This document shows, in pieces, positions 5,685 through 38,524 of a DNA stretch of 64,000 bases. Source of the DNA: Candidatus Gottesmanbacteria bacterium RIFCSPLOWO2_01_FULL_43_11b (GTDB lineage: Bacteria > Patescibacteriota > Microgenomatia > UBA10105 > UBA927). A program made the position numbers and the translations under genes. The stretch covers positions 158,980 to 222,979 of the forward strand of contig MFJV01000001.1 of assembly GCA_001780985.1 (NCBI GenBank), written 5' to 3'. The notes under the pieces were generated by a model. The model saw only the letters and a program-made list of their open reading frames with translations. It made no database searches and was not told where the DNA came from. Every line of letters begins with the position of its first letter. Position 1 is the first letter of the stretch.

Positions 5685-6065
5685 TTATTTTCGTAATTTG
5701 CTAATTTTATCAAGTGCTCTATTAACCTTATCCCAAAACACTTCCATCTTTTCCTCATGTATCAACTTTTCTAGAATCCGCTTTACGCCCTCCCCTCCTT
5801 TATCCAACCAATTTCCTACTCTGTTAATCGTTGAAGTGCTCACATGAAGTATAAAGTGTATATCTTCATAGCTGTATTCTTTTTGTATCATAAGAGCAAT
5901 CGCTAATCTTTTTGCCAACATGACTCGTTCTGTTTTCGTAAAAAAATCGTAGAAAAAATCCTTCGCTTCTGATTGAGATCGAATTGCACCTAACACCCAC
6001 AAAAAATCATCTCGAATTGAGTAATAGACATCTTTATGAATCGGATTACGAGAAATTTGTGTCAT
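5685..6065 (-). CDS. TrpR-like DNA-binding protein, YerC/YecD family
   Basis: 126 aa. TERVMLAKRLAIALMIQKEYSYEDI..VSTSTINRV is the YerC/YecD helix-turn-helix pattern. Confidence 0.75.
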   Translation of the reverse strand: MTQISRNPIHKDVYYSIRDDFLWVLGAIRSQSEAKDFFYDFFTKTERVMLAKRLAIALMIQKEYSYEDIHFILHVSTSTINRVGNWLDKGGEGVKRILEKLIHEEKMEVFWDKVNRALDKISKLRK

Positions 6066-6124: not shown

Positions 6125-7594
6125 TCAATACGCTTGGGCGAAAAGCCAGCGGTGGGTAGCGGGTTTGCCGCAGTGAACACACGTTCCCTTTTCTTCTTTC
6201 GGCACCTGCCTGCCGGCAGGCAGGTCTAAGGGTAAACAACGGTTTGAAGCTTTGGTTTCTGCTTTAATTTTTGTTTCGCACGAGGCATCCTCACACCAAA
6301 ATGCGGAAATAAATCCCCGCTCCCCCGCCATAATCTTTTTAAAATGATCATACGATTCTACCGTATGTGTATGATCCAGAGTAAATTTCTTGTGAGTTTC
6401 CAATAAATTTTGTTGTATCGTCTCTAACATGCCAGAAATTTCATCGATACTAACTTTCTTTTTTTGCATTGTATCGCGAGCAACAGCAGTAACTATTCCT
6501 TCTTCCGCTTCCTTATCACCAATCTCAAGTCGGATCGGCACACCCCGGACCTCCCATTTATTAAATTTAAAGCCTGCACTTTCCCCATCTTTATCATCGC
6601 ATTTGACGCGAATCCCTATTTTTTTCAGCGCCTCTCTTTGTGCTATTGCATATTTTATGGTTTTAGGGCTCGATCCAGGAATAGGAATAAGGATCACCTG
6701 AATAGGTGCGATATTTGGAGGCATAATGAGCCCTTGATCGTCTCCGTGCGCCATGATGAGCCCGCCGATACTTCTTGTGGAGAATCCCCAACTGTTTTGC
6801 CACGGATAGAGCGGCTGTCCTTTTTCATCCTGCACAGTCCAATGAAATGCTTTTGCAAAATTTTGACCTAAATCGTGTGACGTACAACCTTGAAGCGCCT
6901 TACCATCCGGCATCAACATTTCAAAGGTATACGTTTTCTTAGCACCGGCAAATTTTTCCGATTCGCTCTTAACACCTGCAACACCGTAGAGAGCGAGAAG
7001 ATTCTGGTACGTCTCTTTGTACATATCGAGTGCCCAACGAACCTCGGAAACCGACTCTTTGTGAGTATTATGAGCGCAGTGTCCTTCCTGCCACAGAAAT
7101 TCACTCGTTCGTAAAAAGAGATACGTTCGCTTCTCCCATCGAACAATGTTATTCCATTGATTGATGCGGATTGGCAAATCTCTGTAGCTTTGAGTCCAAC
7201 GTTTGTACATTTCATACATAATCGTTTCACTGGTCGGCCGCACCACTAAGCGTTCTTTGAGTTCTTCTCCGCCAGCAAAAGTCACCACAGCCATATGAGG
7301 AGCAAATCCCTCTACGTGTTCTTTTTCAAGATTAAGGAATTTTTCCGGTATAAAGAGAGGAAAATACGCATTCTCCACTTTATGAGCTTTAATAAGTGGA
7401 TCCATGTAGTGTTGAATTCCTTCCCATAGCGCGAATCCATACGGACGAATAACCATACACCCCTTTATCGGCGCGTAATCGGCAAGTTGGGCTTTCAAAA
7501 TAACGTCTGTATACCAATCCGATAGATTGTCGCTTTTTTTCTTGAGCTCTTTCTTTTCAAATTGCTTTTGCATATTAGTAAAGTTTTCCTCCAA
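6125..7594 (-). CDS. proS: proline--tRNA ligase (archaeal/eukaryote-like type, C-terminal zinc module ending in Y)
   Basis: 489 aa with class II aaRS motifs. The C-terminus CVHCGKPATHRWLFAQAY is typical of this ProRS type. Contains the DLPAGRQ palindrome insert. Confidence 0.92.
   Translation of the reverse strand: MEENFTNMQKQFEKKELKKKSDNLSDWYTDVILKAQLADYAPIKGCMVIRPYGFALWEGIQHYMDPLIKAHKVENAYFPLFIPEKFLNLEKEHVEGFAPHMAVVTFAGGEELKERLVVRPTSETIMYEMYKRWTQSYRDLPIRINQWNNIVRWEKRTYLFLRTSEFLWQEGHCAHNTHKESVSEVRWALDMYKETYQNLLALYGVAGVKSESEKFAGAKKTYTFEMLMPDGKALQGCTSHDLGQNFAKAFHWTVQDEKGQPLYPWQNSWGFSTRSIGGLIMAHGDDQGLIMPPNIAPIQVILIPIPGSSPKTIKYAIAQREALKKIGIRVKCDDKDGESAGFKFNKWEVRGVPIRLEIGDKEAEEGIVTAVARDTMQKKKVSIDEISGMLETIQQNLLETHKKFTLDHTHTVESYDHFKKIMAGERGFISAFWCEDASCETKIKAETKASNRCLPLDLPAGRQVPKEEKGTCVHCGKPATHRWLFAQAY
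6204..6225. repeat. 22-bp perfect palindrome acctgcctgccggcaggcaggt (copy 1, inside proS)
   Basis: Read directly from the sequence. It is self-complementary, and the same core occurs at 24939 and 37006. Confidence 0.95.
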
Positions 7595-10550: not shown

Positions 10551-11011
10551 TTATCTAATCCTAAAGCAATTCGACTGAATTTAGCAACTGCGATGTTTTC
10601 TCCGACTTTGGCGACGGTTTGTTTGACAAAATCTCCTATTGTCACCTTTGGATCACGGATATATTCTTCTTTGAGAAGTTCCGTGATGTTTTTGGGGTTC
10701 ATGGAGGCAACTTGTAAACAAATCTCGTGAGCAAGATGCTTAAATTCATCAGTTCGTGCAACAAAATCCGTCTCACAACGGAGTTCGACAAGAACACCAA
10801 TTTTACCATTTGCATGAACGTATGACTCAATAATCCCCTGTGATGTTTCTTTCCCTTCTTTCTTAGCAGCTTTCTCAAGCCCTCGTTCTGTGATGAGTTT
10901 CACAGCTTTTTCGAAGTCACCCTTTGCATCCTCAAGTGCCTGCCGGCAGTCAGAAACACCGGCTTGTGTTTTTTCTCTAAGTTTTTTTATATCATCAAGT
11001 TTTACTTGCAT
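10547..11011 (-). CDS. tsf: elongation factor Ts (short form)
   Basis: The UBA-like N-terminus IKKLREKTQAGVSDCRQALE starts at the internal ATG 11011. The longer track ORF (to 11113) adds a K/R-rich extension that overlaps rpsB and is probably not translated. Confidence 0.88.
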   Translation of the reverse strand: MQVKLDDIKKLREKTQAGVSDCRQALEDAKGDFEKAVKLITERGLEKAAKKEGKETSQGIIESYVHANGKIGVLVELRCETDFVARTDEFKHLAHEICLQVASMNPKNITELLKEEYIRDPKVTIGDFVKQTVAKVGENIAVAKFSRIALGLDK

Positions 11012-23711: not shown

Positions 23712-24885
23712 TCGATCTATGGAGGAGTACTCCGATAAGTATTGGTATAATGGGAAGCACTCGAAGCCATAACCGCGTCACAGCAATTTCGTCTCCAAAC
23801 TGCAGGAAAATGTAAAGCAAAATAAATCCTGCAACTCGAAATACGCTTATCACAACCGACTGTTCAAGTAATAAATGATATTTATTCTTCCATCCTCCGG
23901 GAGATGCATCAAGCACACGATAAACCTCAAGTGTCAGAGCATTCACATAAAAGGCCGCTGTCATTCCTAAAACAAGTATATACACCCATCCGCCAAAAAT
24001 AGTATCGAATGATCCCAATGAATACACTGCGATAACGGTGCCTATTACTCCTATCCAAAACCCATACCGATACCGTTTGAGAAATGCAATCGAGACAATG
24101 CTGCCGATTGCTCCCAAAGCGGAGGCGACTGTTAATGCAAGTCCAAGTGCCGCTTCCCCTCTCAAAAGTATGTACAGCAAGATTCCGGATACTGTTGACA
24201 ATGCAACGTCGAAAAATCCCATAAGCCCTTGCTGCCACAGCACAAGACCCCATCGTGTACTTCGACGGTGGTGTATTACGTGTCTATACGAAAATTGCGG
24301 TGGATCATGAGAAGGAAGTTTCTCTATAAGAATGACCGCTGCAGTCAAAATGGTAAACACGATGAGAAACAAAATCGCGTAACCTGTTGAAATCGATCCT
24401 GATAACTGTCCGATGCCGGCAATTATCCAGCCGCCCAAAACCGGCCCCAATGCGCTGGCAAAATTTATGAGCGCAAGATTCCAACCGATATACTCCGCAC
24501 GTCTTCCGGAATGGGTAAGTATATACTGATTGAGGTTAAACGCGGACCAGTAGTTACCGCCGGAAAATCCGCCTAAGATACCTAATGGCACTAAATACGC
24601 AATGCTCCTTTCCTTGAAGAAAAACAGTAGGAAATAATACAGGGCGCTTGCCAGAAAACTTATTTTCATCATAAGCCCTGATGAAATTTTCCGTAGCGTT
24701 ATTCCTGAAAGTCCGTAGAAAAATGCGAATGATGTAAATGAAACGATGTTATAAAAAATTGTGGTTTTAAGGTCGCTATGGGCAAAGAAAAACACGCTGA
24801 CAAACACCCCTGCAAGGGCGTAGGAGAGAAAGTTTAAAAATTGGATGATTATGAGCTTACGCTCTTCGTTAGATAAATTCCGCAT
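23647..24885 (-). CDS. MFS transporter
   Basis: About 12 predicted hydrophobic helices. The track ORF begins at a TTG (24906), so ATG 24885 is more likely. Confidence 0.78.
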   Translation of the reverse strand: MRNLSNEERKLIIIQFLNFLSYALAGVFVSVFFFAHSDLKTTIFYNIVSFTSFAFFYGLSGITLRKISSGLMMKISFLASALYYFLLFFFKERSIAYLVPLGILGGFSGGNYWSAFNLNQYILTHSGRRAEYIGWNLALINFASALGPVLGGWIIAGIGQLSGSISTGYAILFLIVFTILTAAVILIEKLPSHDPPQFSYRHVIHHRRSTRWGLVLWQQGLMGFFDVALSTVSGILLYILLRGEAALGLALTVASALGAIGSIVSIAFLKRYRYGFWIGVIGTVIAVYSLGSFDTIFGGWVYILVLGMTAAFYVNALTLEVYRVLDASPGGWKNKYHLLLEQSVVISVFRVAGFILLYIFLQFGDEIAVTRLWLRVLPIIPILIGVLLHRSTKTARSAAMHPVPLADTKNLP

Positions 24886-24938
24886 ATTTAGCCCATTGTA
24901 ACGCAAAAAACATTTTTCTCAAAGGTACCGAGCCGCCG

Positions 24939-24958
24939 CCTGCCTGCCGGCAGGCAGG
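24939..24958. repeat. 20-bp perfect palindrome cctgcctgccggcaggcagg (copy 2, disrupting the msrB 5' region)
   Basis: Read directly from the sequence. Removing exactly these 20 nt joins KGTEPP to [17 protein letters not shown] in one frame. Confidence 0.95.
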
Positions 24959-24994
24959 TTTAGTGGAAAATACTACAACAACCACGATCCCGGA

Positions 24995-25258
24995 ATGTAT
25001 GTTTGTGTTTCGTGTGGGAATAAATTATTCAGTAGCGACACCAAATACGATAGCGGCACCGGCTGGCCGAGTTTTTGGAAAACTTCGGGAAAAGTAAAAA
25101 CGAGTGAGGATCATTCTATGGGAATGATTCGCACCGAGGTTATGTGCGGAAACTGTAGCGCACACCTCGGACATGTCTTTAATGACGGCCCTCGAGACAA
25201 AACCGGTCTACGCTACTGCATTAATTCCCTCGCCCTCGATTTTCGACCGAAGGAGTGA
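24995..25258 (+). CDS. msrB: peptide-methionine (R)-S-oxide reductase MsrB, 5'-disrupted (possibly a pseudogene or truncated form)
   Basis: CVSCG..CGNC zinc site, GWPSF, and the RYCINS catalytic Cys region. The conserved upstream KGTEPP segment lies in another frame and has no start codon. Confidence 0.75.
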
Positions 25259-36520: not shown

Positions 36521-38524
36521 TTATTTTATATCTTCTTTCTTCCATGCTGCAAATGTGCAGTTGGGGTAGTTTGAACAACCGTAAAATGTTTTGCCGCGGC
36601 GGGTCTTTTTAATCACAATATCTCCCCCATCCCTCGGGCATTTCATATCAATTTTTTCTGCAAATTGGCGCGTATATTTGCACGCTGGAAAGTTACTGCA
36701 GGCGATAAATTTCCCGTATCTTCCCACACGCAAAACGAGCTGATGACCGCAGTCCGGGCACTTTTCATCAAGTAATTCAACCGGCGTTTTTACTTTTTCT
36801 GCCTGATCGAAAGCTGCGTCAAGCTCTTTGGCAAAAGGCGTATAAAAATCTCTTATTACAGGCACCCACTCTACTTGCCCGTCGGCAATAGCGTCTAAGT
36901 TATCCTCCATAGTTGCGGTAAAGGGGATATCAATAATATTCGGAAAATATTTTATTAGGAAATCGTTGACCAAAAAGCCCAATTCAGTTGGTTTCAACTT
37001 TTTTCCCTGCCTGCCGGCAGGCAGGTCTTCCCGCACTATGTACTGGCGTTCCTGAATTGTTGAAATAACCGGCGCATAGGTAGAAGGGCGTCCGATCCCT
37101 TTTTCCTCAAGCGTTTTAATTAGCGAAGCCTCATTGTAGCGAGGGGGTGGATTTGTAAAATGTTGTTCTGGTATGGCTTGGTTAAATCCTATTTCTTGCC
37201 CCTGTGTAACCTCGGGAAGAACAACTTCCCCGTTATCTTTTCCGAGAATTTTCAAAAACCCCTCAAATTTTATAACCGATCCCTGGGCTTCAAAAAGATA
37301 CGTATTGCTACTTGTAATTTTTATCGTTGTGGAATCAAAAATCGCTTCAGCTGCCTGGCTTGCGAGCGCCCGTATCCAAATAAGCTCATAGAGTCTGATA
37401 TGGTCACGGTTAAGTTCTGCGCTGTCGATCGTAAGCTGAGCGCCTTGTACAGTTGCATCTGTGGGTCTAATTGCTTCGTGAGCCTCCTGGGCTGATTTTG
37501 ATTTTGTTTTGTATCGACGCGCCTCTGCCGGTACATACTCTTTGCCGTATTCTTTTTCTATATAATCCCGCGCTTCACTAATAAATTTCTCAGACAGGTT
37601 AAAACTGTCGGTTCTGTGGTAGCTTATCAAACCCTCTTCGTAGAGTTTTTGAGCAAGTTGCATTGTGCGTTTCGCAGAAAAGTATAATCTTCGGCCCGCA
37701 TCCTGCTGGAGTGTGCTTGTCGTATAGGGAGGGGCCGGAAACCGTCTCACTTCTTTTTTGTCTACTGAAGAGACGATATAGGGTGATTTTAAATCTTTGA
37801 TTATGGTATCTGCTGCGTTTTGGTCAGTTATTGTCGAGGAAGCCGTAGTATATTTTCCGTCAAAAAGATCAAATTCAAGATTTTTTTCATACAAAACACC
37901 CTCTTTGGAAACCAGGTGTGCATGAATTTCCCCGAATACCCCTTCAATTGTCCAGAACTCTTCTTTTTGAAATTTTTCTATTTCTCTTTCCCGCTCAACG
38001 ATAAACCGTACGGCGACTGATTGAACCCTTCCTGCTGAAAGCCAACGGCGGGAAAGTTTCTGCCAAAGGAGTGGGGACAATTTGTATCCAACAAGTCGAT
38101 CTAATATCCTTCTAGCCTGCTGCGCGTTTACGAGTTTTTGGTCAATTTCACGCGGATGCGTTAGCGCTTCGGCAATCGCGTGTTCCGTTATCTCATGGAA
38201 TACTATTCGAGTAAACTTCGACTTTTTTAGTGTGTCCGCAACGTGCCAGGCAATTGCCTCTCCCTCCCGATCCGGGTCGGTTGCAAGAATAATCGAATCT
38301 GCCTTCTTTGCTGCGTCTTTGAGTTCTTTGGCGCGCTTTGCTTTCGCACGCGGGGTGACATATCTGGGGGTAAAGTCATGATCGACATCAACCCCGAGTT
38401 CGGATTTCGGCAAATCACGAATATGCCCCATCGATGCTTCAATTCGATAATCTTTACCGAGAAATCTCGACAGAGTTTTAGCTTTTGTTGGTGATTCAAC
38501 AATAATGAGATGATAATTTTTCAT
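36521..38524 (-). CDS. topA: DNA topoisomerase I
   Basis: Toprim start LIIVESPTKAKT, active-site region SYHRTDS, and two C-terminal zinc ribbons. Contains the DLPAGRQ palindrome insert. Confidence 0.93.
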   Translation of the reverse strand: MKNYHLIIVESPTKAKTLSRFLGKDYRIEASMGHIRDLPKSELGVDVDHDFTPRYVTPRAKAKRAKELKDAAKKADSIILATDPDREGEAIAWHVADTLKKSKFTRIVFHEITEHAIAEALTHPREIDQKLVNAQQARRILDRLVGYKLSPLLWQKLSRRWLSAGRVQSVAVRFIVEREREIEKFQKEEFWTIEGVFGEIHAHLVSKEGVLYEKNLEFDLFDGKYTTASSTITDQNAADTIIKDLKSPYIVSSVDKKEVRRFPAPPYTTSTLQQDAGRRLYFSAKRTMQLAQKLYEEGLISYHRTDSFNLSEKFISEARDYIEKEYGKEYVPAEARRYKTKSKSAQEAHEAIRPTDATVQGAQLTIDSAELNRDHIRLYELIWIRALASQAAEAIFDSTTIKITSSNTYLFEAQGSVIKFEGFLKILGKDNGEVVLPEVTQGQEIGFNQAIPEQHFTNPPPRYNEASLIKTLEEKGIGRPSTYAPVISTIQERQYIVREDLPAGRQGKKLKPTELGFLVNDFLIKYFPNIIDIPFTATMEDNLDAIADGQVEWVPVIRDFYTPFAKELDAAFDQAEKVKTPVELLDEKCPDCGHQLVLRVGRYGKFIACSNFPACKYTRQFAEKIDMKCPRDGGDIVIKKTRRGKTFYGCSNYPNCTFAAWKKEDIK
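37006..37025. repeat. 20-bp perfect palindrome cctgcctgccggcaggcagg (copy 3, inside topA)
   Basis: Read directly from the sequence. Translated in-frame as DLPAGRQ, the same frame as in proS. Confidence 0.95.

Follow-up and report, generated by a model that had tools for sequence, protein, structure and literature searches.

The insert in the topA gene studied here is probably a copy of an insertion element, a very small and selfish palindrome that we call PAL, and the movement of PAL may depend on GIY-YIG nucleases. The window, that is the whole stretch of Candidatus Gottesmanbacteria DNA that was analysed (64,000 nt), holds the following features.

topA: 36521-38524, minus strand, type IA DNA topoisomerase I of 667 aa, the intact host gene of a PAL copy
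PAL copy in topA: 37006-37025, minus strand, perfect 20-nt palindrome CCTGCCTGCCGGCAGGCAGG
PAL copy in proS (ORF 6125-7594, minus strand): 6205-6224, minus strand, net 21-nt in-frame insertion
PAL copy in the msrB remnant: 24939-24958, plus strand, 20-nt insertion, frame broken
msrB pseudogene: 24851-25258, plus strand, pieces in different frames

The insert in topA and the other copies in the window

The product of topA has a Toprim domain (Pfam PF01751), a Topoisom_bac core (PF01131), zinc ribbons (Zn_ribbon_Top1, PF01396) and the catalytic tyrosine motif Y302-H-R-T-D-S, a combination that identifies it as a type IA topoisomerase I. The motif is invariant in 48 sequences and the catalytic and Zn-ribbon regions are conserved. 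The protein is 100% identical to one named DNA topoisomerase I from Candidatus Gottesmanbacteria RIFCSPLOWO2_01_FULL_43_11b and matches TopA entries in the PDB with E-values down to 1e-146. Directly upstream of topA lies dprA, a DNA-uptake gene.

The insert consists of PAL and one extra G (37005), making 21 nt in frame. The DNA reads GAA GA[C CTG CCT GCC GGC AGG CAG GG]A AAA AAG, where the brackets enclose the net gain of 21 nt, and the insert encodes TopA residues 501-507 (LPAGRQG) in the context ...VRED-LPAGRQG-KKL.... In two relatives with an empty site (L201 and L242) the DNA is GAA GAA AAG AA(G/A); the empty site, with the insertion point marked by a bar, is AAAGAAGA|AAAGAAG. An alignment of 120 close TopA homologues has no residues in the insert columns of 112, and the nearest homologues (73-82% identity) are empty, reading YVV(K/R)E(E/D)KKLKPTELG.

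The original prediction had called this a clean in-frame insertion of 21 nt into a contiguous conserved segment of TopA, and that description holds against the 120 homologues and the solved structures. Orthologs that lack the palindrome might have had a loop of the same length and unrelated origin here, which would have spoken against it; none does. Its codon reading (gtg cgg gaa GAC ... CAG gga aaa, translated as V R E D L P A G R Q G K) was exact, and its coordinates, 37006-37026, were off by one, as GAC...CAG occupies 37007-37027. Seven residues are indeed added, but the alignment gives them as LPAGRQG, with the native E/D kept as D, and not as DLPAGRQ. The two placements are the same at the DNA level: the palindrome and one base.

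Mapping onto TopA structures had also been proposed at the outset. PDB alignments place a seven-residue gap at the insert position in the Streptococcus mutans (6ozw) and Escherichia coli (4rul) proteins. The AF2 model (mean pLDDT 79.9, down to 59 for the block 501-510) has a helix at 480-492, a strand at 496-501, a turn at 502-504 and a strand at 505-512. In this model the insert occupies the tip of a surface beta-hairpin that belongs to domain D4. The permissive loop would be the tip of the hairpin 'wing' that follows the RPSTYA helix; the hairpin would merely be seven residues longer, and the peptide would be harmless and have no role. Two other TopA proteins carry PAL elsewhere, after SSN(A) at position 409 (P0056, DNA with one mismatch to PAL) and after NTTN at position 217 (P0087, no mismatches). 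On the model, these two inserts fall in different beta-hairpin turns from the one above.

The proS copy shares 23 identical nucleotides, AGACCTGCCTGCCGGCAGGCAGG, with topA in the same reading phase, giving DLPAGRQ. That nucleotides and phase are the same had been predicted, and the proviso 'apart from the first base' proved needless. The insert lies in a loop of the C-terminal zinc-binding domain of ProS (CLPLD-LPAGRQV-PKEEKG). The empty site in a relative (L241) reads CTG GAC GCG AAG GAA GAA AAG, and the other 119 ProS homologues have no insert at this position; one protein (P0171) has PAL elsewhere in the same loop.

In the msrB remnant, three-frame translation shows that PAL lies between GTEPP (24924-24938) and FSGKYY... 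(24959 onward), which are in different frames. The pseudogene consists of an N-terminal piece (24851-24898) that runs into a stop (24899-24901), the piece encoding GTEPP in another frame and a C-terminal piece (24959-25258). When the 20 nt and 1 nt near 24899 are taken out, the sequence aligns without gaps across the junction to the MsrB structures 2k8d, 3cez and 6q9v.

The 18-nt core of PAL occurs exactly three times in the 64-kb window (6206, 24940 and 37007), and 100 dinucleotide-preserving shuffles gave no match to it. A PAL-like sequence with two mismatches in tsf (10935-10954) was rejected as a chance resemblance and not an insertion: SDCRQAL is native there, the relative L241 having the same residues in other codons and no added length.

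Distribution, form and targets of the palindrome

Exact copies of PAL were found in at least 120 genome stretches from about 115 species, with unrelated flanks. The hosts are Patescibacteria, Bacteroidota (including cultured isolates such as Winogradskyella echinorum KCTC 22026 and Flagellimonas yonaguniensis), Omnitrophota, Planctomycetota, Thermodesulfovibrionales, Bdellovibrionales and others; the identical palindrome is present in at least eight phyla, and 35 viral-contig stretches carry it as well. The examined loci hold about 170 exact copies. The full 20-mer is present in 122 of 126 copies, and a variant, CCTGCCTACCGGCAGGCAGG, occurs in five loci from different taxa. PAL is free of stop codons in all frames and is predicted to fold into a hairpin of 8 bp with a 4-nt loop (-8 kcal/mol as DNA). 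Besides topA, proS and msrB, other long ORFs also contain copies.

Insertion adds exactly the 20 nt of PAL and neither duplicates nor removes target bases. This can be seen in seven loci where a partial and an intact tRNA stand side by side and differ by exactly 20 added nucleotides, no base being duplicated or lost (L038, L109, L084, L004, L237, L246 and L247). PAL also spreads within genomes, and after insertion it decays by point mutation. The topA copies of L204 and L205 have one and three mismatches, and the changes are mostly non-synonymous and include palindrome-breaking ones.

No sequence-specific target could be defined, the flank logo being nearly flat. There is a weak flank preference (GA is enriched 2.3-fold and AGA 3.8-fold, and T is avoided just 5' of PAL), and flanks of this kind do not explain the hot spot in TopA. 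Pre-existing hairpins or tandem repeats were also rejected as the main targeting rule as their enrichment is only mild: 4.3% of copies lie in pre-existing hairpins (0.8% of controls) and 5.6% in a tandem-repeat context (1.5% of controls), for example in L051, L103, L059 and L214. No split halves of PAL flanking a cargo were found in 2.1 Mb of loci.

All-against-all BLAST of the ORFs within 2.5 kb of 125 sites found no family in more than three loci, and a shared neighbour gene was rejected on these grounds. ParB appears three times among the neighbours and is adjacent to PAL twice, in L049 (PAL at the 3' end) and in L001 (about 50 nt upstream), any link with ParB being tentative. Neighbour-ORF clustering together with a GIY-YIG HMM scan identified the GIY-YIG nuclease as the only recurrent neighbour family.

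Rfam has no family that matches PAL; the only matches are to tRNAs, SSU rRNA (L127), the LOOT sRNA (L078) and one group I intron (L237). A metagenome scan for relatives of TopA returned few close ones. Their loci held three PAL copies, one exact (L125) and two with one mismatch (L132), and none of these was in topA. A search of 8 million full texts gave no match to the 18-mer core, and literature searches gave nothing relevant linking GIY-YIG, a palindrome and tRNA in Patescibacteria or Bacteroidetes.

The GIY-YIG and tRNA cassette and the origin of the TopA insert

The HMM scan found ten GIY-YIG ORFs in the 2.1 Mb of loci. PAL lies 19-40 nt upstream of five of them, and L101, where the ORF is truncated, is a sixth case. 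The PAL-associated ORFs carry the GIY-YIG catalytic domain (Pfam PF01541; E = 7.6e-14 in L038, 2.5e-15 in L237 and 4.5e-15 in L061). They are arranged as a cassette: an ORF of about 80 aa has a partial copy of a tRNA gene (its 5' part) on one side and an intact copy on the other. In nearly every case inspected the partial copy contains PAL, which lies where D-loop and D-stem meet and precedes the ORF by about 16-40 nt. Two loci that were chosen without any sign of PAL, from Dokdonia (L246) and Shapirobacteria (L247), both have this order of partial tRNA with PAL, ORF and intact tRNA. Additionally, a PAL peptide is found 4-20 residues before MYFVYVLK in 9 of the 12 GIY-YIG homologues that have an N-terminal extension, a count biased by the fact that a stop-free PAL favours long upstream ORFs. 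The named homologues belong to CPR and Bacteroidota, which are also the two main groups of PAL carriers. Two GIY-YIG cassettes (L134 and L127) have other GC-rich hairpins in place of PAL. In the 64-kb window tblastn found no GIY-YIG gene, and no locus examined has a nuclease gene linked to topA.

The most likely mechanism is that PAL would be mobilised in trans by the GIY-YIG nucleases of about 80 aa, or inserted at breaks that they make. A GIY-YIG protein of 79 aa has no obvious DNA-binding domain. A uniform distance from PAL to the junction of the cassette was sought and rejected: the spacer derived from the target is between 8 and 33 nt long, so a fixed offset like that of I-TevI is unsupported. 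The surviving copies suggest that dispensable DNA (leftover partial tRNA copies, intergenic DNA and the inactivated msrB) keeps the bare +20 form. Essential genes, by the same reasoning, would keep only the rare events in which the frame is regained (+21), PAL is read in the open LPAGRQ frame and the insert falls in a permissive loop.

Eight proteins, from five separate lineages, have the TopA site filled. PAL is identical at 20 of 20 positions in topA of the window, L202 and L203, while their four-fold sites differ by 65-68%; in the sister pair L202/L204, 38% of four-fold sites and one of 20 PAL bases differ. Between the window and L202, differences within 10-20 codons of the insert (4 of 5 and 8 of 12 four-fold sites) are as frequent as gene-wide, and no co-conversion tract was detected in the flanking four-fold sites of the filled alleles. 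Judged by these sequence comparisons, neutral vertical inheritance of the TopA copy is excluded: PAL has stayed identical beside synonymous sites that are saturated and free of any co-conversion tract. Under the mechanism proposed above, repeated filling of the one site would reflect a preferred cleavage or insertion site and not common descent.

It is possible, though we hold this only tentatively, that Patescibacteria, Bacteroidota and others have an undescribed nuclease-driven system in which a GIY-YIG protein of about 80 aa cuts conserved DNA and a fixed 20-nt palindrome is written into the break. Examples of the cut sites would be the tRNA D-arm (GGTAGA|GC) and the codons of the topA hairpin. 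The D-arm sequence is unchanged in the intact tRNA beside the nuclease gene, which leaves any simple account of PAL as a shield for the cleavage site incomplete.

Every filled TopA allele has the same junction, GAC...GGA, including the extra G and the E-to-D codon, and a single origin accounts for this more easily than five independent events do. The insert could have arisen once in an early ancestor of the Gottesmanbacteria and been inherited vertically, with precise loss in most descendants and repeated correction of PAL, by its own machinery, against other PAL copies (concerted evolution). The sister pair L202/L204 clearly inherited the insert together, and perfect palindromes are prone to deletion. 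However, parsimony on a neighbour-joining tree requires either 5 gains or 23 losses, each loss a precise removal of 21 nt, and 20 nt of identity is short for RecA-type conversion. The neutral version fails on the saturated flanking synonymous sites, and PAL at other TopA sites in other lineages shows that new insertions into the gene do occur. We consider a single origin rather unlikely.

Perfect identity of PAL beside saturated four-fold sites, and its identity across phyla, would also be expected of a functional cis-element under selection, either a binding site for a conserved dimer-forming protein, comparable to parS and its protein ParB, or an RNA hairpin that governs mRNA fate. The stable 8-bp hairpin and the two copies that adjoin parB point the same way. 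Against this, the closest TopA relatives lack PAL, msrB was destroyed by it and it is found in dead partial tRNA copies. Over the roughly 170 sites neither the flanks nor the position relative to genes are related, the neighbouring genes share no family beyond chance-level groups of three loci, and some copies decay freely. Selection for a cis-acting function is distinctly unlikely.

Homing of the filled topA allele between lineages, in which a site-specific nuclease would cut the empty site and repair would copy the insert from a filled allele acquired from another cell, fits the common site and junction in five lineages, the association of PAL with a GIY-YIG family and the position of dprA next to topA. 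Against it, the filled alleles lack a co-conversion tract, the 21-nt insert has no coding capacity and no nuclease gene is linked to topA in the loci examined. We regard homing as very improbable.

Finally, the identical short palindrome in many metagenome-assembled genomes could suggest a technical sequence, but an assembly, adaptor or chimera artefact is refuted by its presence in isolates grown in culture and in assemblies made by many laboratories on many platforms, its restriction to particular phyla, the point mutations between orthologous copies, its in-frame position in essential genes and an independent assembly that encodes the same TopA protein (P0002), and a native lineage-specific loop is refuted likewise, as no homologue has an unrelated loop at the site.

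Relation to known elements and significance

The preferred reading, that of a selfish palindromic insertion element, brings PAL closest to several known kinds of repeat. The small dispersed repeats (SDRs) of Nostocaceae, reportedly described by Elhai et al., are said to be 21-27 nt long, hairpin-forming and dispersed. PAL likewise is 20 nt, forms a hairpin, is dispersed and is too small to encode anything; it is present or absent at orthologous sites of related genomes (filled and empty in TopA and ProS), and both are often embedded in short tandem repeats. Unlike SDRs, PAL is a perfect palindrome of one sequence in at least eight phyla and viral contigs, its hosts here are not cyanobacteria, it lies in frame in essential genes and it is tied to a GIY-YIG/tRNA cassette. 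We know of no such GIY-YIG or tRNA link for SDRs. One report (PMC5861425) places SDRs in Nostocaceae only.

PAL resembles the Rickettsia palindromic elements (RPEs) in being palindromic, in frame in coding genes, some of them essential, and in giving a surface peptide with function kept. RPEs, reportedly described by Ogata et al. in 2000 and by Claverie and Ogata in 2003, are said to be 100-150 bp long, to encode 30-50 aa and to occur in one genus. In contrast, PAL crosses phyla and at 20-21 nt (7 aa with the extra base) falls well short of the size of an RPE.

REP and REPIN sequences are short GC-rich palindromes that are extragenic, species-specific and linked to an HUH Y1 transposase, RAYT (TnpA-REP) (PMC3116915, PMC6006769). 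Like them, PAL is a palindrome multiplied in genomes, presumably through one trans-acting enzyme whose single-copy gene is flanked by the repeat. Unlike them, it enters genes and so is not extragenic, and it is identical across phyla. The GC clusters, or palindromic mini-elements, of fungal mitochondria are organellar and variable in sequence, and some classes have target duplications. PAL resembles them as a short, mobile, GC-rich palindrome in a genome of lower GC content that is sometimes in frame in genes; they coexist with GIY-YIG and LAGLIDADG homing endonuclease genes, as PAL does with GIY-YIG.

The cassette has the same form as free-standing GIY-YIG homing endonucleases (T4 Seg, I-TevI; PMC3943268) in that a small ORF lies beside or inside conserved genes, here tRNA. 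By analogy with these enzymes, the nuclease of the PAL system is proposed to act at an offset from the position of its ORF. In contrast to them, the PAL-linked proteins have about 80 aa and only the catalytic domain. To our knowledge, a partial 5' duplication of a tRNA together with a fixed 20-nt palindrome is undescribed for known GIY-YIG homing enzymes.

Other classes were considered and rejected. The element is not a MITE: there is no target-site duplication in the seven comparisons of partial and intact tRNAs, the whole element is one 20-nt palindrome and the neighbours of the 125 sites share no transposase family. At 21 nt (7 aa) it is too small for the splicing domain of an intein or the ribozyme core of a self-splicing intron. 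Removal at the RNA level was also rejected, as msrB remains out of frame with its +20 copy, and removal of 20 nt would break topA and proS.

If a nuclease-made break is indeed filled by the palindrome, PAL would be the smallest known actively propagated DNA element, and its recurrent same-site insertions in essential genes would possibly protect those sites from further cutting. The pairing of PAL with a minimal GIY-YIG protein at tRNA genes provides a candidate enzyme for the long-open question of how mini-repeats move. For annotation, one source of spurious indels and frameshifts in the gene models of CPR and Bacteroidota is PAL, recognisable by its peptides LPAGRQ, CLPAGR and PACRQA, and PAL copies may serve as markers of permissive loops in proteins such as TopA. 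As an element, PAL lowers the known size limit of mobile elements and widens the host range of a kind represented so far mainly by SDRs and the larger RPEs. It suggests that 20 bases without coding capacity can act as a mobile element, identical across phyla, and reshape essential proteins by seven residues at a time.

PAL copies in the window and the TopA insertion

The perfect palindrome PAL lies in three genes of the window, which has a GC content of 43%; the 18-nt core of PAL gave no match in 100 shuffles of the window.

36521-38524, minus strand: topA ORF, host gene of one PAL copy
37006-37025: PAL (CCTGCCTGCCGGCAGGCAGG) in topA, perfect 20-nt palindrome
6205-6224: PAL in proS, exact copy
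24851-25258, plus strand: apparent msrB pseudogene, with PAL and a second frame break (TAA at 24899-24901)
24939-24958: PAL in the msrB remnant, exact copy

The TopA of the window matches, at 100% identity, the protein named DNA topoisomerase I in Candidatus Gottesmanbacteria RIFCSPLOWO2_01_FULL_43_11b. The original prediction was of a clean, in-frame 21-nt insertion in topA. The codons on which it was based (gtg cgg gaa GAC CTG CCT GCC GGC AGG CAG gga aaa) were re-read identically, with the coordinates one base off (GAC to CAG is 37007-37027). The insert columns are empty in 112 of 120 homologues, and those without an insert include the closest sequences, which at 73-82% identity have YVV(K/R)E(E/D)KKLKPTELG. 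The empty site in the DNA of two relatives is GAA GAA AAG AAR and the filled site in the window is GAA GA[C CTG CCT GCC GGC AGG CAG GG]A AAA AAG. Against this empty-site DNA the insertion is indeed clean, in frame and 21 nt long, consisting of PAL plus one G. The solved TopA structures of S. mutans (6ozw) and E. coli (4rul), when aligned, also have a gap of 7 residues here. There is no unrelated loop of similar length at this site in the 120 homologues, so the alternative that orthologues without PAL have an equally long loop of other origin does not apply.

The TopA model (AlphaFold2 from 48 sequences; mean pLDDT 79.9) has the following elements around the insert.

Residues 480-492: helix, RPSTYAPVISTIQ
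Residues 496-501: strand
Residues 502-504: turn
Residues 505-512: strand
Residues 514-526: helix

From this order of helix, strand, turn and strand, the insert (L501-G507) lengthens, at its tip, the beta-hairpin after the RPSTYA helix; pLDDT is down to 59 over residues 501-510. According to the domain boundaries published for the E. coli enzyme, this position belongs to domain D4. Every invariant column, the catalytic motif included, is intact. At a separate locus, L132, two 1-mismatch PAL copies (at 5928 and 8346) flank topA just beyond the gene ends; the TopA encoded there is a distant relative (48% identity).

In proS the window reads CLPLD-LPAGRQV-PKEEKG and the remaining homologues CLPL-D-AKEEKG, and the empty-site DNA in one relative is CTG GAC GCG AAG GAA GAA AAG. 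Together these give a net gain of 21 nt in the same frame as in topA. The proS ORF as listed (6125-7594) has a TTG start and extends about 14 residues beyond its homologues (about 475 aa); the true start probably lies further in. The matches returned for its product included no 100% identical full-length protein.

In msrB exactly the 20 nt of PAL separate GTEPP, in one frame, from the downstream coding sequence, in another. When PAL is removed together with one base near 24899, which creates the TAA, the resulting protein matches MsrB structures through the junction in a gap-free alignment. Starting at the ATG further downstream (24995) would yield an 87-aa C-terminal fragment only, and msrB looks like a pseudogene. 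The msrB junction indicates that the bare element is 20 nt and able to kill a gene. PAL disrupts genes when out of frame, and being in frame is a property of the survivors in essential genes, not of PAL itself. A PAL-like stretch in tsf (10935-10954, minus strand; a 2-mismatch match at 10936, 16/20 vs PAL) was rejected. It is part of the native EF-Ts N-terminal motif AGVSDCRQAL, and because a relative has the same residues (SDCRQAL) in other codons the resemblance is put down to chance, not to insertion.

Recurrent filling of one TopA site

The TopA site is filled in eight of the 120 homologues. In a neighbour-joining tree the filled alleles form five clades, each amid empty alleles, and parsimony requires either 5 gains or 23 losses. 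PAL is identical at 20/20 positions in the window allele and in loci L202 and L203, and four-fold sites differ by 65-68% (saturation). The sister pair L202 and L204 differ at 38% of four-fold sites vs 1/20 PAL bases, for which we estimate arithmetically a P of about 1e-3 if all 20 sites are neutral.

Two explanations remain. The first is repeated insertion of PAL at a preferred TopA site. Two other hairpin tips of TopA have also been entered by PAL (proteins P0056 and P0087), and ProS has a second insertion place (P0171); these three cases show fresh insertions into topA and proS to be common. The second is that the TopA insert is old and its sequence is actively kept perfect; the extra G common to all filled TopA alleles argues for one origin. 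PAL decays after insertion, and in the degenerate copies at the TopA site (L204, L205 and P0077) the changes are mostly non-synonymous, so the PAL peptide in TopA is free of selection. Recombinational spread of a longer segment carrying the insert is excluded: four-fold sites no more than 10-20 codons from the insert are as divergent as the rest, and TopA thus shows no conversion tract. Neutral vertical inheritance of the insert is likewise excluded.

Insertion at tRNA genes and the GIY-YIG cassette

At seven loci a partial 5' tRNA copy and the adjacent intact tRNA gene could be compared as after and before insertion. The junctions (slash) are as follows.

L038: ggtaga/gcagc
L109: gtcagc/cttcc
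L084: ggagt/ggtta
L004: gtggcg/gaatt
L237: ggta/gagc
L246: ggata/gaat
L247: ggtaga/gcgc

In all seven pairs the two copies differ by PAL alone, exactly 20 nt, with no base duplicated or lost. Flank preference is weak (GA 2.3-fold and AGA 3.8-fold enriched, an adjoining T avoided), and there is a mild preference for pre-existing hairpins and short tandem repeats. Flanks resembling tRNA are enriched (12/163 PAL sites vs 2.3% of control positions in the same loci).

PAL regularly occurs together with a cassette, located at tRNA genes, that encodes a minimal GIY-YIG nuclease. L038, L109, L237, L101, L078, L246 and L247 share one layout: a partial 5' tRNA copy, an ORF of about 80 aa and the intact tRNA gene. 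PAL (degenerate in L078) is in the partial copy at or near the D-loop/D-stem junction, and the intact copy is unaffected. The ORFs, which frequently extend into the intact tRNA, are GIY-YIG catalytic domains. An HMM scan of the 2.1 Mb of fetched loci found 10 GIY-YIG ORFs, five with PAL 19-40 nt upstream; L101 is a sixth. Among 120 homologues of the L038 nuclease the named ones are all from CPR or Bacteroidota, and in 9/12 N-terminally extended L038-type homologues the PAL peptide stands just before MYFVYVLK. Two GIY-YIG homologues picked without any hint of PAL both had the full cassette layout. In a type I restriction HsdS gene of a Thermodesulfobacteriota MAG (L061, 3861-4180), PAL, 21 nt of native HsdS sequence and a GIY-YIG domain follow one another in frame, the +20 of PAL and the cassette length together restoring the HsdS frame. 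No GIY-YIG gene lies within the 64-kb window.

GIY-YIG cassettes that lack PAL (L134, 11700-11807; L127, 13540-13604) have other GC-rich hairpins (ccgccttcgccgaaggcgg, cccgccagaggcggg and cccgccgaagaggcggg) at the corresponding place of the partial tRNA copy; the L134 hairpin is at the very tRNA-Leu position that PAL takes in L101. There are thus several hairpin families, of which PAL is one.

Three loci show further features. In L237 (1182-1416) the GIY-YIG ORF is followed by a group I intron (Rfam RF00028, 86 bits), which apparently interrupts the tRNA copy after the ORF. In cultured Agriterribacter humi (L086, 1-137; a locus of 137 nt) PAL occupies the tRNA D loop downstream of the GIY-YIG ORF instead of an upstream partial copy. 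In L109 (3746-3985) an internal frameshift puts MVHVYVLQS and KDKTLYTGITNDL of the PAL-adjacent GIY-YIG ORF in different frames, which suggests that this nuclease gene is decaying.

In the favoured model, PAL insertion is driven by the GIY-YIG nuclease or its breaks. The TopA site would be a preferred break or insertion site, and the survivors in essential genes would be insertions that gained one extra base.

Distribution of PAL and comparison with known elements

One genome per GTDB species (596 Gb) was scanned with the 18-nt core, which was found in at least 120 genome stretches; about 9 matches are expected for a random 18-mer (arithmetic estimate). Among the matches listed, the hosts include many Patescibacteria classes, Omnitrophota, Planctomycetota, Thermodesulfovibrionales, Bdellovibrionales and uncultured Gammaproteobacteria, besides single members of further phyla. 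Bacteroidota are also hosts, cultured strains among them (Winogradskyella echinorum, Flagellimonas yonaguniensis, Longitalea luteola, Flavivirga, Aquiflexum lacus, Agriterribacter humi and Aestuariivivens sediminis), and the exact 20-mer is present in 35 stretches of viral contigs. The flanking C and G that complete the 20-mer are present in 122/126 copies, and the sequence further out is unrelated. As a 20-nt insertion element, PAL combines precise insertion, a wide host range and insertion polymorphism.

The one-substitution variant CCTGCCTACCGGCAGGCAGG occurs at five loci in unrelated taxa (L087, 4005 and 5137; L039, 3289; L088, 1062; and L132, 8346), the two copies in L087 having longer flanks in common. 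Since it recurs across different taxa, existing PAL copies serve as templates for new ones. Within real genes, when the genome is low in GC, PAL is almost always read as xxC CTG CCT GCC GGC AGG CAG Gxx, giving LPAGRQ. A tandem array in the viral contig IMGVR_UViG_3300025106_000007 (L239, 3916-4125) repeats the 21-nt unit CATGCCTACCGGCAGGCAGGC at least 10 times; the unit adds one base to a PAL variant, and its period therefore keeps the reading frame. A Planctomycetales MAG also has PAL at the parB 3' end (L049, 7461-7480), and in a Parcubacteria MAG it is upstream of parB at a distance of about 50 nt (L001, 2446-2465), a proximity that may be due to chance, many gene families having been tested.

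A full-text literature search found no occurrence of the PAL sequence. Cyanobacterial small dispersed repeats, which one study describes as reported only from Nostocaceae (PMC5861425), are like PAL very small, hairpin-forming and mobile. Fungal mitochondrial GC clusters are another of the nearest kinds. PAL is not a MITE, having neither target duplication nor a parent IS, and it is not a REP, since it is not confined to extragenic DNA; REP/RAYT systems combine palindromic repeats with a trans-acting enzyme, yet are extragenic and HUH-based. Rickettsia palindromic elements are 100-150 bp long and lie in frame in genes. PAL is similar in its in-frame location but is of the wrong size. Mobile mini-repeats of this kind are already known, mainly from the cyanobacterial small dispersed repeats and, in a longer form, from the Rickettsia elements. 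What is new in PAL is its identity across phyla, its recurrent insertion at the same site of an essential gene and its link with GIY-YIG nucleases and tRNA genes.
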